Origin: a virus
Taxonomy: Duplodnaviria > Heunggongvirae > Uroviricota > Caudoviricetes
Strand: one strand, 5' to 3'
DNA length: 18,590 nt
IMG/VR virus record: IMGVR_UViG_2703718776_000018
This document shows positions 4,349-18,590 of the stretch, one piece after another (within the stretch, counting starts at the first letter, position 1; each line of letters starts with the position of its first letter). Under the pieces are notes generated by a model that saw only the letters and a program-made list of their open reading frames with translations, searched no databases and was not told the DNA's origin. The position numbers and the translations under genes were made by a program.

Positions 4349-4636
4349 TTAGTTTTGAGGCAATGCAACAAAAGTCAGCTCTTGATCTTTGATTAATGCT
4401 TTTGTTTGTTTGGATGTAATTCCCACTTTAGTTTTTACATCATTGTGGAGCTTCTTATACGCTTTTATTTCATCTGCTGTATATCGGAAGCCATTTGCAC
4501 TGTTACTGGACAGTTGAAGTGCGATTACGTCATCACTGACACCCGCATCGCTTAGCTTAGCTATGCGGGTAATAGTGTGGCCTGCGCGAGTGTTTGGGGT
4601 GGATATTTTGTCTAAGAAATTGTTCAGTTTTTCCAT
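4349..4636 (-). CDS. Hypothetical 95-aa protein in an AT-rich cassette; possible HTH-like segment
   Basis: ATG at 4636 with SD GAGGT 8 nt upstream on the reverse strand. Bounded by the palindrome at 4275-4320 and the terminator at 4857-4884. Local GC is clearly lower than the flanks. The segment TITRIAKLSDAGVSDDVIALQL loosely resembles an Xre-type HTH. Confidence 0.65.
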   Translation of the reverse strand: MEKLNNFLDKISTPNTRAGHTITRIAKLSDAGVSDDVIALQLSSNSANGFRYTADEIKAYKKLHNDVKTKVGITSKQTKALIKDQELTFVALPQN

Positions 4637-4856
4637 TGTTTACAACCTCTTACTTGAGTTTATTGCCAGTAGAATTGCCACTATTCTTTTGCCTCAACGA
4701 ATCACAATGTACTGGAATAAGAAACTATGAGCAATACTTACGCTTTGCGAATACAGAAGATGAATAATCAACTTATTACTAAAATGTTAATAATATTATT
4801 CTGTTACATAGTGTTCGCTATAACAATCGGGAGTTGAATGCTAATTCAATAAATAA

Positions 4857-4884
4857 AGAACCCGCCAATTGGCGGGTTCTTTTT
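4857..4884 (-). terminator. Rho-independent terminator (10-bp stem AGAACCCGCC/GGCGGGTTCT, loop AATT) with U-rich tracts on both sides
   Basis: Perfect GC-rich hairpin directly after the stop of the 262-aa reverse-strand gene (stop 4883-4885); followed by TTTATTTATT on the reverse strand and TTTTT on the forward strand. Confidence 0.8.
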
Positions 4885-5671
4885 AATCACTTTCCACTTC
4901 TCCCGTGGTGTTTTCTTGCAGTTCTGTTAATGCAGCACGACATAGGTTCCGGGCATTGGCTATAGCCACACTTTTGACTTCATCCGTCATCGTGCAGGTA
5001 ATGTACTGATCTAGTTCTTCATCGCGGATGATGCTTTTGCCAATCAGAAACTGTATTTGCCAGAGCAGATCGGCATCCATAATCAGAATTTCTGCCGGGC
5101 CTTCAGGGCCAGCCGGGAAGGAAACATAAGACTGTTTGCCCAGGCCGACAACTCGACAACTTGCTTCAAGAATTGCGCGCTTGAGGTCTGACTTTATAAC
5201 GGAAACAGGTTGATTTTCACCAGTGATTACGCCGTTGACATGGAAAGGCATGTAGCTTGAAATTCGCTCTACTTTCCATACGCCAGCAAGCGATCCTTCA
5301 TGCAGCACAATGGGGGTAACCGCGAGTTTCATCTCACCATATAACTGCTGGCAGATAGCTGGATTGCTGAATACATCCAAAGGTTCACACTCAAACAGCG
5401 GCGCAATCTGCATGAGGTCCATCATGGTCATCCCTGGGGTACGAGCAGTAATGAATCTGCGCATACCAGTATCCATTGCGCTCCAGATTGCTACACCATG
5501 CTTTTTGCTCACTTCTTCAGTAAAGCCAAGGTGGCACATGATGGTTTTTTCGATAGCCAGATCAGAGATAGAAACCGTTTCGCCTGGCACTCCATCATTA
5601 TTGACGGTCACTTCGACACTCTGGCCATTACGTAGGCGGTATTGAATGGTTTTAGTATTTTGTGCTGTCAT
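4883..5671 (-). CDS. Hypothetical 262-aa protein downstream of ssb; function unknown
   Basis: Uninterrupted ORF with ATG at 5671, ending at a strong terminator. No motif recognisable by eye. Confidence 0.75.
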   Translation of the reverse strand: MTAQNTKTIQYRLRNGQSVEVTVNNDGVPGETVSISDLAIEKTIMCHLGFTEEVSKKHGVAIWSAMDTGMRRFITARTPGMTMMDLMQIAPLFECEPLDVFSNPAICQQLYGEMKLAVTPIVLHEGSLAGVWKVERISSYMPFHVNGVITGENQPVSVIKSDLKRAILEASCRVVGLGKQSYVSFPAGPEGPAEILIMDADLLWQIQFLIGKSIIRDEELDQYITCTMTDEVKSVAIANARNLCRAALTELQENTTGEVESD

Positions 5672-5868
5672 AGTCTTTTCTCTGCTTAAAAACTGATGTA
5701 TTGCGCCTTCAGGTTGGTTAGGAATGTTTTCCCACCAGCGAAAGCAATATCTCGGGGTGTTCTATTCGTTAAAAGCGCGTGCCATTGCCAACTTTGGCGT
5801 TTTTGAGCGAGTTCGTGCTTTTGTCGGCGTCTGGACCACCGCTTTTTTTTCAGTCGTTTTTTACACAT

Positions 5869-6357
5869 TCAAAACGGAATATCGTCGTCAAAGTCCATTG
5901 GAGGTTCGTTATTAGCGTTGCTCTGAGGTTTACCGCCACCACTGTATTGCTGGTGGTTTTGAGGTTGGTTTGATTGCCCCCAGCCATTTGTGGACTGTGA
6001 ATCGTCGCGACGAGCGCCGATCATTTGCATGGTGCCGCCCTGGCTGACGATAATTTCCGTCGTGTAACGTTCTACACCGGCGTCATCTGTCCACTTACGG
6101 GTTTTAAGTTTCCCTTCGATGTAGACCTGAGAACCTTTTCGTAAATACTCACTCGCAATTTCAGCAAGTTTTCCGAACAAAACGACTTTATGCCATTCTG
6201 TTTGCTCTTTCTGTTGGCCCGTTTGCTTGTCGCGCCATGATTCATTCGTTGCGATGCTGAGTCTTCCGACCGCGCCGCCATTTGGTATATACCTGATCTC
6301 CGGGTCTTGCCCCAGGGTGCCAATCAGGATGACTTTGTTTACACCGCGTTGTGCCAC
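5869..6357 (-). CDS. ssb: Single-stranded DNA-binding protein (162 aa), GTG start
   Basis: N-terminus [20 protein letters not shown].. is a typical SSB OB-fold start. Gly/Gln-rich linker and the canonical acidic tail [14 protein letters not shown] 7 nt before the GTG at 6357. Confidence 0.92.
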
Positions 6358-6376
6358 TTATCTTACCTAATAAAAT

Positions 6377-6393
6377 AAAATAATTAGAGCAAC
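6377..6393 (-). promoter_or_regulatory. Candidate C1-repressor-type operator (reverse strand reads GTTGCTCTAATTATTTT) over the presumed ssb promoter
   Basis: 14/17 match to the P1 C1 operator consensus ATTGCTCTAATAAATTT as I recall it, including a perfect TTGCTCTAAT core. Lies 20-36 nt upstream of the ssb GTG. Confidence 0.4.
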
Positions 6394-6526
6394 AATGTAT
6401 ATCTTTGAAACGTAGCTAACAAGTGATTTGCATTATCCTGTGCCTTCTAAAGGGATCGAGTCAGTCGGTATTGGCTGTGAATGGGTGTTTGTCCTGGAGC
6501 GTAAAAAATTCGCTTATGAGGTCTTT

Positions 6527-7084
6527 ATGAAGGGAAAAACAGCCGCAGGAGGCGGTGCAATTTGCGCTATCGCGGTGATGATTACCATCGTGATGGGTAA
6601 TGGCAATGTGCGAACCAACCAGGCGGGGCTTGAGCTGATTGGTAACGCTGAAGGTTGCCGACGTGATCCATACATGTGCCCGGCGGGGGTATGGACTGAC
6701 GGGATCGGTAATACACACGGGGTAACGCCGGGTGTGCGAAAAACCGACCAGCAAATCGCCGCTGATTGGGAAAAGAATATCCTGATCGCTGAACGCTGTA
6801 TTAATCAGCACTTTCGGGGCAAAGACATGCCCGATAATGCCTTCAGTGCAATGACAAGCGCGGCATTCAATATGGGATGCAATAGCTTACGGACCTACTA
6901 CAGCAAAGCGCGAGGCATGCGAGTCGAAACGTCCATCCACAAGTGGGCGCAGAAAGGGGAATGGGTGAATATGTGTAACCATCTCCCTGATTTTGTGAAC
7001 AGTAACGGCGTGCCCCTGCGAGGTTTAAAGATTCGCCGTGAAAAAGAACGCCAGCTTTGCCTGACGGGGCTGATCAATGAATAA
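6527..7084 (+). CDS. lyz: SAR (signal-arrest-release) endolysin, T4-lysozyme family, 185 aa
   Basis: Starts MKGKTAAGGGAICAIAVMITIVMGNG (Gly/Ala-rich SAR domain with Cys13), then NAEGCRRDPYMCPAGVWTDGIGNTHG carrying the Glu/Asp/Thr catalytic residues. Matches my recollection of P1 Lyz. SD GAGG before the ATG at 6527; the ORF-track start at 6428 is a TTG over-extension. Confidence 0.95.
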   Translation: MKGKTAAGGGAICAIAVMITIVMGNGNVRTNQAGLELIGNAEGCRRDPYMCPAGVWTDGIGNTHGVTPGVRKTDQQIAADWEKNILIAERCINQHFRGKDMPDNAFSAMTSAAFNMGCNSLRTYYSKARGMRVETSIHKWAQKGEWVNMCNHLPDFVNSNGVPLRGLKIRREKERQLCLTGLINE

Positions 7085-7375: not shown

Positions 7376-10106
<2,731 letters not shown>

Positions 10107-10172: not shown

Positions 10173-13100
10173 ATGAACAAGCTATCTATGGGGGTGTTTC
10201 GCTGTTCAAGTGTCAGCGAAATATTGAAATACATTAGGGCAATAACATCTCACCGAGCGCCGATTAAATACGGCGTGGAAAAGGTGGAAGGCAAAAGCTA
10301 TGACCGACTGCGCCGGGAGGCGAATCAGAAGGCGATAGATTTGCTTAATTCACTGGTGGACGGCGCGACACTGACAGATGAACAGCGCCAGATCCTGGCT
10401 GGGTACACCGGTGAAGGCGGCATTGGCGGGTCCGTCTCCGAATATTACACACCAAAGCCGATCGCTGAAGGTGTCTGGGAGATCATGAAGCTCTACGGCG
10501 CGGACGTAGGTAACACTCTGGAACCATCGGCGGGCACCGGCGTTTTTAATGAGACAAAACCGGTTGGTACGGTGATGACTGCGACTGAGATCAGCAGTGT
10601 TTCCGGTCGTATAAACCAGTTGTTACACCCGGAAGACAGCGTACAGATTTCCCCGTTCGAACAGCTGGCTATAAGCACACCTAACGATTCATTCGACCAT
10701 GTTGTGGGTAACGTTCCGTTCGGCGGTCGTGATAACACACGCAACATCGATAAGCCTTACGCAGAAGAAACGGACATGGGTTCTTACTTCATGCTCCGCA
10801 TGCTGGACAAGATAAAGCCAGGCGGATTCATGTGCGTGATTGTGCCGCCGTCCATTGTTTCAGGTTCAAACATGAAGCGGTTACGCCTGCGCCTATCACG
10901 GAAAGCAGAATTTCTTGGTGCCCACCGCTTGCCTACCGGTACTTTTGACGCAAACGGGACCAGTACGGTCGTAGATGTGGTGCTGATGCGCAAACATCCG
11001 GCAGAGATGGCTGAGAAAATCCCCCTGGTGGATGAAAGCACTCTTGAATCAGCAAATGTGCTTTGGCCAACGTTTATTTCTGGCAAGTGGTTTGAAAAGG
11101 ATGGCCGCCGGTTTGTTCATGGCACCCAAGAAAAGGGCTTCCGGGGGCGTATTGAGGTTCGTGCCGACGGTCAGATTGATAACCAGGCTCTTAAAGCGAA
11201 GCTGATTCATCGTTTCGAAAGCCGTATCGACTGGTCTTTGCTCGATATGGCTGAACCGTCACCGACCGCAGACGTTGTTGGTGAAGGGGAAATGCGCCTG
11301 ATTAATGGCGTATGGCAAAAATATGCTGGTGGTCGCTGGATTGAAGCTGATGCCGGGAAGGAACTTAAGATCGATGCTGCCAGTTATGGCGCGGATAGCT
11401 GGGAGGCTCTTCAGCGTAACCTGACTACAACAGAAGGCCGTCTCGGCATGACATTTACCCAGATGGCAAATGTCCGCGATAAGTACACCACATCAATCAG
11501 CGACGATATGGTGCAGCTGGTGGACTGGATTAACAGCCAGCCTGAAAAATACCGTGAACGCTTGTATCGCGGGGCGATGATTGGCCGGATGTTAATTGAA
11601 TATCAGGACATGAAGGCCGCCGGGCATAGTGCTGAACAAATCGAACAGCAGCGCCTTTCTCTGGTATCCCGTTTGCAGGCAGAGATTGACCGTTTTGGTA
11701 ACCCCGGTCGCGGTCCGATAGCGAAATTATCGGGGAGCGGTGCGCGCGCCTGGTTTGCTTTCCGTGGTGCAATTAAGCTGGATGGCACTATTTCTGACGA
11801 GCTGACAGGAAAACTGGTTACGCATGATTCCAGCGCCAGTTATGACTCCACCAGCTATCAGGACACCCTGCGTTATCTCTACAGTGATCTCACTCGCGAT
11901 CCAATCCAGCTCGATGATTTCCGCCTTGCGTTTACCGGCGAACTGCCAGCCAGTGATGATGAGTTGCTTAATTTATTGGCCAGCACCCCTGGCATTGCGG
12001 TTTCACCGTATGGCGGGATTGTTCCGTTCGCCCGCGCCACCAGCGGCGACATTAACGAGATAGTGGCTCCAAAACAGGAATTCCTCGCCACGCTCCCCGA
12101 CGGTCCAGTAAAGAACAACGTCCTTAATCAGCTGGCAGCGATCGAAGAGAAGCGCATCAAGACGCCAGCAGAGAATATCCGCTTTAAGCTCAATAGCCGT
12201 TGGTTCGACCGCTCCGTCATTCTGGAGTTTTTGCAGGAAAACGGCTATCCGGATCTGCGCTATGTGCAGTCAGTGCAGCTGGAAGGCGACGAAATGGTTT
12301 CTGACACCTATCACGGTGGTGATGGTCTGTTCGTCGGGCACCGATACGGTGTCGTCCAGCGCAAGGATAAAGAAACAGGCGAGATCCGCTACGAGTGGGA
12401 CCGTAAATCAGGTGAAAACGCGACCGGGTTCCCGGCACAACTGGAAAAGTATCTCAATGGTGCGCGTATCGGTGGCAAAGATAGCGCGACGGCGAACGGC
12501 TACCGCGAGCAGATGGCACTGCTTGAGGACCAGTTCAATAAGTGGATCAAGACGCACGATCGCTACGATGAGCTGGTTGCCAAATACAACGATGTGTTCA
12601 ATAGCAATATCCCGTATGAACACTCTGGCGATCCGCTTGGGTTGAAGGGATTAAGCGGTAAGCGCCAGCCATTTGATTACCAGAATAGCGAGGTGCGCCG
12701 ACTGTCCGAAGATGGGCGCGGCATCCTGGGCTTCGGCACCGGGCTGGGTAAAACCACGACCGCGCTGGCGCTTGAGGCGTTCAACTATGAGAACGGTCGC
12801 TCCACCCGTACTGCTTATGTAGTGCCTAAAGCAGTGCTGGAAAACTGGTATTACGAAGCAAAAGAGTTCCTGAGTGAAGAGGCATTCAGTAACTACCTGT
12901 TCGTCGGTCTTGATGTGCTGATGGATGGCGATCAGATTCGCCAGGTGCCGGTGCTCGATGAGAACGGTAAACCTGTTCTTGGTACTGATGGCACTCCAGT
13001 TATGCGCGATGCTCTTAAGCTGGCAGATGAAGCCACTATCACGGCGCGGATGAACGCGATCCCGCACTCAAATTACCGTGCAGTCGTGTTTACCAAAGAA

Positions 13101-16973: not shown

Positions 16974-17414
16974 ATGGCCACACTATCTGATACAATAAAA
17001 CCGAATAAAACATATCTTGAGGCGGTACTGCGTACGGCGTTGTTAGGAAAGACAGAAGACGAATACGTTGATTTCTTCCTGTCAGGGCTACGTGGGCGAT
17101 TACTGAAAAATCCCCGCCTGTACCGCAGCTATGGCCCATACTGGCCGGAAATTAAAAAATTATTACTGGAGCGCGGTTATGGTAATTTCGGTCGTCTCGT
17201 TGACCGTGACGTTCGCAAAATTTACCGTTATGACCGCCCGGCGCTAACACTCATAGCCGCGACGCTCTACAGCCAGGAGCGTTTTGATAATGGTCAGATA
17301 TACTCAGCCTGGCATTTACTGCCAGTGCCTGAAGAAGTTGACGACCAGGACTATGAGTTTGAGTCTTACGATTTGGAAGTTGAAGCCTTGGCACAGGCTG
17401 GAGAGAAAACTTGA
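16974..17414 (+). CDS. ulx: Ulx-like protein (146 aa), co-transcribed downstream of darB
   Basis: ORF directly after darB and overlapping the next gene start. Position and size agree with my recollection of P1 ulx (upstream of lxc). Not verifiable without a search. Confidence 0.6.
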   Translation: MATLSDTIKPNKTYLEAVLRTALLGKTEDEYVDFFLSGLRGRLLKNPRLYRSYGPYWPEIKKLLLERGYGNFGRLVDRDVRKIYRYDRPALTLIAATLYSQERFDNGQIYSAWHLLPVPEEVDDQDYEFESYDLEVEALAQAGEKT

Positions 17415-17659
17415 AAAAGCGATACTACACAGTAAAGCATGGGACGCTACGAGCATTACAAGAGTTTGCTGACAAGCATAACGTTGAGGTGCGCAGGGAA
17501 GGGGGAAGTAAAGCTCTGCGCATGTACCGTCCGGACGGGAAATGGCGGACGGTCGTCGATTTCAAAACTAACAGCGTTCCCCAGGGCGTCCGCGACCGGG
17601 CATTCGAAGAATGGGAACAGATCATCATAGATAACGCATTGCTCCTGAATGCGGATTGA
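17411..17659 (+). CDS. lxc: Lxc/Bof-like small protein (82 aa), TTG start overlapping the ulx stop
   Basis: TTG at 17411 with SD GGAGA 7 nt upstream. Overlap TTGA with the ulx stop. Followed by a terminator. Size and position consistent with P1 lxc (bof) from memory. Confidence 0.5.
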   Translation: MKKRYYTVKHGTLRALQEFADKHNVEVRREGGSKALRMYRPDGKWRTVVDFKTNSVPQGVRDRAFEEWEQIIIDNALLLNAD

Positions 17660-17710: not shown

Positions 17711-18301
17711 TTACACTATATCTTTTACTATAGAATTAGCATCCTCCAGTACGCCAATTTCTTCGATGCGTTTTTTTATTATTAATCGATTTGAAGCAAT
17801 GATTGTGGACCATCTTGTTTCCCAAGCTCTATAAGCATGCCACGAATAACCTAATCTCATTTCTTTGCTCATGTTGGACATTGAGTATTCAACGGCGTCT
17901 AAATATTCATTTTCATACTTAGTTCCACCAATTTCTAAAAGGCTGCCGAAATATATAAGCCATTTTGCAAGCTGCTCGTATTGCTCCCAAGCACCACTCT
18001 CTCTTGTTAAATCTCTTTTTTGTTTTATTATTCTCTTGAAAAAATCAACTACTTGTCCGTCATTCCAGTCGAAACCCTCAGATATAATCGAGGAGGTTAT
18101 TTGATAGAATGAATCTTCTAATCTAAGGTATTCATCCTTATAGTTGAAAGTGCCTGATAAAACTCTTTTTATACTTTGTCTGGCTCTTGCTATGACGCCT
18201 TCAATTAACATTATGTTAATGCTCAATCTCTTAAAGAAAGAGTCTATTTCGGTGTTGTCAATTACTCGTATTCCAAAACAATAAAAATAATAATCCTTCA
18301 T
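17711..18301 (-). CDS. Hypothetical 196-aa protein in an AT-rich island next to IS1; function unknown
   Basis: Uninterrupted ORF with ATG at 18301. Region 17700-18374 is markedly AT-rich compared with the darB/ulx side. No SD-like sequence stronger than AAGT upstream. Confidence 0.7.
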   Translation of the reverse strand: MKDYYFYCFGIRVIDNTEIDSFFKRLSINIMLIEGVIARARQSIKRVLSGTFNYKDEYLRLEDSFYQITSSIISEGFDWNDGQVVDFFKRIIKQKRDLTRESGAWEQYEQLAKWLIYFGSLLEIGGTKYENEYLDAVEYSMSNMSKEMRLGYSWHAYRAWETRWSTIIASNRLIIKKRIEEIGVLEDANSIVKDIV

Positions 18302-18331
18302 ATCTTGACTTACTTCACTGCGAGAGATGAA

Positions 18332-18348
18332 AAATATATTAGAGCACA
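18332..18348 (-). promoter_or_regulatory. Candidate C1-repressor-type operator (reverse strand reads TGTGCTCTAATATATTT) upstream of the 196-aa gene
   Basis: 14/17 match to the recalled consensus ATTGCTCTAATAAATTT with a perfect TGCTCTAATA core. Lies 31-47 nt upstream of the ATG at 18301. Confidence 0.4.
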
Positions 18349-18374
18349 GAGCGTTACCTTTCGAGAATATTTTG

Positions 18375-18590
18375 TAATCATTTATGGTAATGACTCCAAC
18401 TTATTGATAGAGTTTTATGTTCAGATAATGCCCGATGACTTTGTCATGCAGCTCCACCGATTTTGAGAACGACAGCGACTTCCGTCACAGCCGTGCCAGG
18501 TGCTGCCTCAGATTCAGGTTATGCCGCTCAATTCGCTGCGTATATCGCTTGCTGATTACGTGCAGCTTTCCCTTCAGGCGGGATTCATAC
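18375..18590 (-). mobile_element. IS1, partial: terminal inverted repeat and 3' portion of the transposase gene; the element continues beyond the window end
   Basis: From 18375 the forward strand reads GGTAATGACTCCAACTTATTGATAG.., the IS1 terminal repeat. The reverse complement through 18590 matches the IS1 3' region I recall (..CTGCATGACAAAGTCATCGGGCATTATCTGAACATAAAAC..). Confidence 0.9.
18390..18590 (-). CDS. insB: IS1 transposase InsB, C-terminal part (runs off the window end)
   Basis: Reverse-strand frame ends ..[17 protein letters not shown] with the stop at 18390-18392, the characteristic InsB C-terminus. Confidence 0.85.

Follow-up and report, generated by a model that had tools for sequence, protein, structure and literature searches.

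Operators of the C1 immunity repressor of phage P1 are asymmetric sites of 17 bp with the consensus ATTGCTCTAATAAATTT (PMC8546580), and the same consensus emerges from the 20 annotated C1 operators of the P1 genome (AF234172.1). Binding of C1 to its operators is enhanced by Lxc, and the interplay of C1, Lxc, and Coi has been described (PMC8546580). The monovalent operators, namely Oc4/Op51, OrepL/Op53, Odmt/Op68, OpmgT/Op88, Olpa/Op94, and others, are likewise asymmetric 17-bp sites and possess a GC(T/A)CTAAT core. Several of them (Oc4, OrepL, Odmt, and Olpa) read along the promoter that they regulate and overlap or abut the sigma-70 promoter of a lytic-cycle gene, with differences in their exact placement: OrepL overlaps the -10 element, Olpa and Oc4 overlap the -35 element, and Odmt ends at the first base of the -35. 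In the same P1 record the feature Omat (2628-2645) is annotated on the - strand with a length of 18 bp; its sequence, CATGCACTAATAAATAT, is in fact that of the + strand at 2628-2644, and this GenBank feature thus seems to have been placed on the wrong strand.

The closest described counterpart of the site considered here is the operator in front of the P1 gene for the single-stranded DNA-binding protein, ssb. It is annotated as "operator 21 (Op21)", a binding site of the major repressor C1, at 5683-5699 of AF125376.2, and as the monovalent, C1-controlled Ossb, the former Op21, at 21015-21031 of AF234172.1; the P7 counterpart, Op(ssb), is annotated as controlling ssb expression at 24773-24789 of AF503408.1. 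The same intergenic region holds LPlyz, which has a -22 box and a -10 element like the other Lpa-activated late promoters of P1 (LPs, LPdar, LPsit, LPpac, and others). Op21 is said to have been identified through C1 binding, and ssb-P1 is reportedly fully repressed in lysogens. The gene has further been grouped with dmt and kilA as C1-controlled, with induction in rt-qPCR after thermal induction of a c1.100 lysogen (PMC4713147), and the P1 annotation of Op21 cites the GenBank record M25412.

The window and its ssb-lyz intergenic region

The window, i.e., the whole 18,590-nt stretch of DNA analysed, belongs to a P1-like (Punavirus) plasmid prophage. Most of the window shares 98-99% identity with P1, SJ46, and vB_EcoM-Ro157c2YLVW, and its gene order is ddrB-hxr ... 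ssb / lyz-lydD / pro-prt / darB-ulx-lxc. The last of these genes, lxc (bof; 17411-17659, + strand), is an 82-aa ORF for the C1 co-repressor and is collinear with P1 lxc at 9750-9998. As c1 lies outside the 18.6-kb window, we infer its presence in the same element from relatives. The complete plasmid NZ_AP027178.1, which has the identical operator allele and 100% identity over window positions 6340-6450, encodes a C1 that differs from P1 c1.100 at three amino acids, and its operators at the remaining P1 positions are canonical. Canonical operators elsewhere are likewise seen in Ro157c2YLVW, in whose 80.7-kb record no annotated c1 was found.

Some of the surrounding gene content departs from that of P1. 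Downstream of ssb (window 4349-5868), ORFs of 60, 262, and 95 aa, none with a significant Pfam match, replace P1 isaA-IS1-isaB, an arrangement also present in Ro157c2YLVW and NZ_AP027178.1, where the products are annotated as hypothetical proteins. Next to lxc, where P1 has EcoP1 mod/res, the window (17711-18590) carries a SIR2-family gene that is possibly an anti-phage defence gene. This gene has 436 codons in NZ_AP027178.1; the window keeps the C-terminal ~225 codons, including a 196-aa ORF, and a Pfam search of this fragment gave no match. The gene is cut at position 18386, and the interrupting sequence, which we take to be the end of an IS1, matches thousands of plasmids.

Two genes flank the intergenic region. 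The ssb gene (5869-6357, - strand) starts with GTG and codes for a 162-aa single-stranded DNA-binding protein (Pfam SSB PF00436, E = 6.9e-40), and its region is 98.9% identical to P1 at the nucleotide level. On the other side, lyz (6527-7084, + strand; ATG at 6527), the gene annotated as lyz in P1, codes for a T4-lysozyme-like endolysin of 185 aa and shares 97-100% identity with the best 80 of the 147 IMG/VR P1-like loci that encode lyz. Between them lies the C1-operator-like 17-mer GTTGCTCTAATTATTTT (6377-6393, - strand; the + strand reads AAAATAATTAGAGCAAC), which occupies the same alignment columns as the annotated operator of P1 and P7 and has identical flanks. The site further shares with Op21/Ossb its strand relative to ssb, the core TTGCTCTAAT, and a position between the -10 of the ssb promoter and the ssb ribosome-binding site (6365-6373, - strand; regulatory feature 5703-5711 of P1 AF125376.2), divergent from LPlyz. 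The operator of P1 and P7 reads ATTGCTCTAATTAATTT, from which the window allele departs twice, with G in place of A at position 1 and T in place of A at position 14.

The promoter that this operator adjoins, Pr21 (= P2ssb; 6394-6422, - strand), is a sigma-70 promoter transferred from the P1 annotation, with a sequence identical to that of P1. Its -35 TTGTTA (6417-6422) and -10 TACATT (6394-6399) are separated by a 17-nt spacer, and the operator begins with the very next base. Like Oc4, OrepL, Odmt, and Olpa, Ossb reads along its predicted promoter and abuts it; unlike any of these four, it sits directly downstream of the -10. A second ssb promoter, P1ssb, marked "predicted" in AF234172.1 and moved through the alignment to about 6360-6387 (- strand), would have its -35 hexamer (6383-6388) inside the operator. 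A 19-nt leader, ATTTTATTAGGTAAGATAAGTG, separates the operator's 3' end from the GTG at 6357, so that the position just 5' of ssb given in the initial annotation is correct. Its statement that the site lies over the ssb promoter is right for the start-site region just downstream of the -10, but not for the hexamers of Pr21, which the operator leaves free. Over 6250-6600, a generic scan for sigma-70 promoters and terminators called neither; it missed Pr21/P2ssb because only 8 of the 12 hexamer positions match the consensus. By analogy to P1, on whose annotation its status rests, we regard Pr21/P2ssb as a predicted promoter with unchanged hexamers.

Reading in the opposite direction, the Lpa-dependent late promoter LPlyz (6421-6439, + strand) is identical to its P1 counterpart. 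It is composed of a -22 box, AAGTGATTT (6421-6429), which fits those of 10 other annotated P1 late promoters (AAGTGACTT-like), and a -10 TATCCT (6434-6439). Their spacing is that of most other annotated P1 late promoters, LPhot having a longer one. The -22 box shares 2 bp with the -35 of the divergent ssb promoter and starts 28 bp from the operator edge, close to the 25 bp or so initially estimated. LPlyz is separate from the operator and constitutes a second, late signal, and the earlier suggestion that early-repressed and late-activated signals occur together in this one intergenic region agrees with the pairing of Pr21/P2ssb and LPlyz annotated in P1.

Match to the C1 operators and the two-base allele

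Compared with the consensus ATTGCTCTAATAAATTT, the 17-mer deviates only at positions 1, 12, and 14; the match of 14 of 17 and the exact 10-bp core (positions 2-11) are both as initially claimed. The consensus used for that claim is itself correct, since the literature and the 20 annotated P1 operators agree on it. The initial annotation had also proposed scoring with a weight matrix. On a leave-one-out matrix built from the 19 other annotated P1 operators (Ossb excluded), the 17-mer scores 18.84 bits and is the best site in the window. The annotated P1 operators range from 15.0 to 28.4 bits in 19 of 20 cases, the exception being Oc1b (6.5 bits), and the window site falls within this range, as do, for example, Orlf (18.1), Olpa (19.8), and Oc1c (15.0). 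P1 Op21 itself matches the consensus at 16 of 17 positions and reaches 26.3 bits, as against 18.8 for the window allele, i.e., 7.5 bits more. The window holds three sites with at most three mismatches to the consensus, compared with 0.04 expected from 200 dinucleotide shuffles, and only 18 of 3000 first-order Markov windows (0.6%) hold any site scoring at least 18.84 bits. The consensus match cannot be put down to chance in AT-rich sequence, and the 17-mer belongs among the P1/P7 C1 operators by its sequence and GC(T/A)CTAAT core, by this excess over chance, and by positional orthology.

Several other operator-like sequences came to light in the same scans. One of these, ATTGCCCTAATGTATTT (window 10227-10243, - strand; 16.5 bits, a score reached by ~4% of simulated windows), is located within the 5' end of darB, facing LPpro/prt; the same sequence occurs in P1 at 17166-17182, where it has no operator annotation. 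Among 28 IMG/VR contigs with this site, it is unchanged in 23, and two have ATTGCACTAATGTATTT, which scores much better (21 bits). Another, TGTGCTCTAATATATTT (window 18332-18348, - strand; 15.3 bits, reached by ~9% of simulated windows), was rejected as an operator in front of the 196-aa ORF; it is located within the coding sequence of the SIR2-family gene cut by the presumed IS1, rather than before a gene, and is thus probably fortuitous. A further unannotated sequence, ATTGCTATAATTATTTG (18.5 bits), is found just upstream of c8 in P1 (AF234172.1, 1485-1501), and NZ_AP027178.1 has a better form, ATTGCTCTAATTATTTG (22.6 bits), at 54074 (- strand) beside a c8-like ORF, in what is apparently the corresponding position; this hints at a putative additional C1 site upstream of c8.

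Across 211 aligned bp, the window differs from the P1/P7 consensus by three substitutions and one indel, none of which affects the promoter hexamers or LPlyz. Two of the three substitutions fall inside the operator, namely A to G at position 1 (window 6393) and A to T at position 14 (window 6380), which could indicate relaxed or altered constraint. Of the 19 other annotated P1 operators, 5 likewise have T at position 14; at position 1 they have A, C, or T, and none of the 20 has G there. From these comparisons we infer that substitutions at the degenerate positions 1 and 14 leave the operator functional, perhaps weaker. Co-evolution of the operator with an altered specificity of C1 was rejected as unlikely, since the C1 of NZ_AP027178.1 is near-identical to that of P1 and the other operators in this plasmid and in Ro157c2YLVW are canonical.

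The G1/T14 allele is rare. Among 72 IMG/VR P1-like contigs retrieved by exact flanks, 62 have the P1 form, six have ATTGCTCTAATCATTTT, three have the window allele, and one has ATTGCTCTAGTTGATTT; of 491 plasmids that matched in PLSDB, 5 show 100% identity across window 6340-6450, plasmids of O111 and O26 strains among them. Phage Ro157c2YLVW, from an STEC O157 host, is identical over window 6150-6750. Most occurrences of the allele are in P1-like plasmids of E. coli of the STEC type (O26, O111, and the phage with the O157 host). In a separate sample of 84 sequences (the window plus 83 loci), picked by lyz and hence independently of the intergenic sequence, the operator varies only at positions 1, 12, 13, and 14, with positions 2-11 invariant. 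This invariance is not significant in the 84 sequences (0 of 10 columns variable against a background of 19%, or 32 of 169 intergenic columns; p ~0.12). Farther afield, a distant blastn search with 6150-6750 matched the intergenic region only in ~20 records of the P1 group, the more distant matches being confined to ssb or lyz coding sequence, and the GTDB genomes supplied three close relatives with a full lyz plus one 262-bp contig fragment.

Proposed regulation and alternative readings

Judged from sequence, the 17-mer is very probably a functional monovalent operator for a P1-type C1 immunity repressor and the ortholog of Op21/Ossb. The basis for this reading is twofold: that C1 binds Op21 and controls ssb is taken from the annotation of and literature on P1, and the present analysis contributes the identity, the orthology, the match statistics, the intact hexamers, and the canonical C1 and regulon of complete relatives with the same allele. 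The initial proposal that ssb is under immunity-repressor control is supported by analogy, in that the orthologous operator is annotated as C1-controlled in P1 and P7 and ssb is among the C1-controlled genes of P1 (PMC4713147).

We propose that in the plasmid prophage C1 would bind the asymmetric operator with the help of the Lxc encoded in the same window. Given that the operator starts one base past the -10 of Pr21/P2ssb and would also cover the -35 of the predicted second ssb promoter, bound C1 would occlude the start-site region, and ssb would therefore be silent in lysogeny. Once C1 is inactivated, whether by Coi, Ant, or induction, ssb would be transcribed as an early lytic gene, and at a later stage Lpa would activate the divergent LPlyz, leading to the expression of lyz-lydD.

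The effect of C1 at this site could extend in both directions. The P1 record AF234172.1 has a sigma-70 promoter reading towards lyz, Plyz, marked "predicted", which corresponds to window 6338-6364 (+ strand; -35 at 6338-6343, -10 at 6359-6364) inside the 5' end of ssb; relative to lyz it is upstream of the operator, which thus stands between the two, and the P1 27-mer is unchanged at window 6338. C1 bound here might roadblock or occlude this rightward promoter as well, and thereby stop premature endolysin production in lysogens. We consider such a bidirectional effect unlikely, as Plyz is a prediction only, the generic scan misses it, and lyz expression is ascribed to the late promoter LPlyz.

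With respect to the two substitutions, one reading that goes beyond neutral polymorphism is that the G1/T14 form of Ossb is a weaker operator tuned to permit low-level production of phage SSB in the lysogen. We rate this as rather improbable; if it were true, the low level of SSB could aid maintenance of the plasmid prophage or make contact with host SSB partners. The same two changes (A1G and A14T) might alternatively have weakened C1 binding through decay of the operator, leaving ssb leaky or constitutive in the lysogens of this lineage. Such decay would be in line with the G at position 1 that the annotated operators lack, with the 7.5-bit deficit relative to P1 Op21, with the concentration in the operator of two of the three intergenic substitutions relative to P1, and with the fact that no other member of the canonical operator set is weaker in either Ro157c2YLVW or NZ_AP027178.1. 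However, functional P1 operators vary at both of the changed positions, the 10-bp core is preserved, and the annotated Orlf and Oc1c score no higher than this site. In addition, Lxc, the reported enhancer of C1 binding, is encoded in the window, and the allele has been kept in several independent E. coli plasmids; on balance, decay appears very improbable. That the 17-mer is a chance AT-rich match devoid of a regulatory role has a negligible probability: although the intergenic region is AT-rich and the generic sigma-70 scan calls no promoter in it, the excess over simulated expectation speaks against such a match, and the exact positional orthology with the annotated P1 and P7 operator effectively refutes it.

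Significance of the site and its allele

As an orthologous C1 operator, the site is ordinary: both the operator and the whole arrangement around it are already known, having been published and annotated for P1, and hence they are not a discovery. What the case illustrates is that a real repressor operator was recognizable from sequence alone in the initial annotation. It further ties the window to a P1-like plasmid prophage whose immunity wiring is the standard one: C1 and Lxc would act on Ossb to control ssb, and Lpa on LPlyz to drive the lysis genes. The known regulation of P1 is left unchanged, and the sole new item is a natural two-base allele of the operator. This G1/T14 allele could serve as a ready-made test of the contribution of positions 1 and 14 to the affinity of C1 for its operators.
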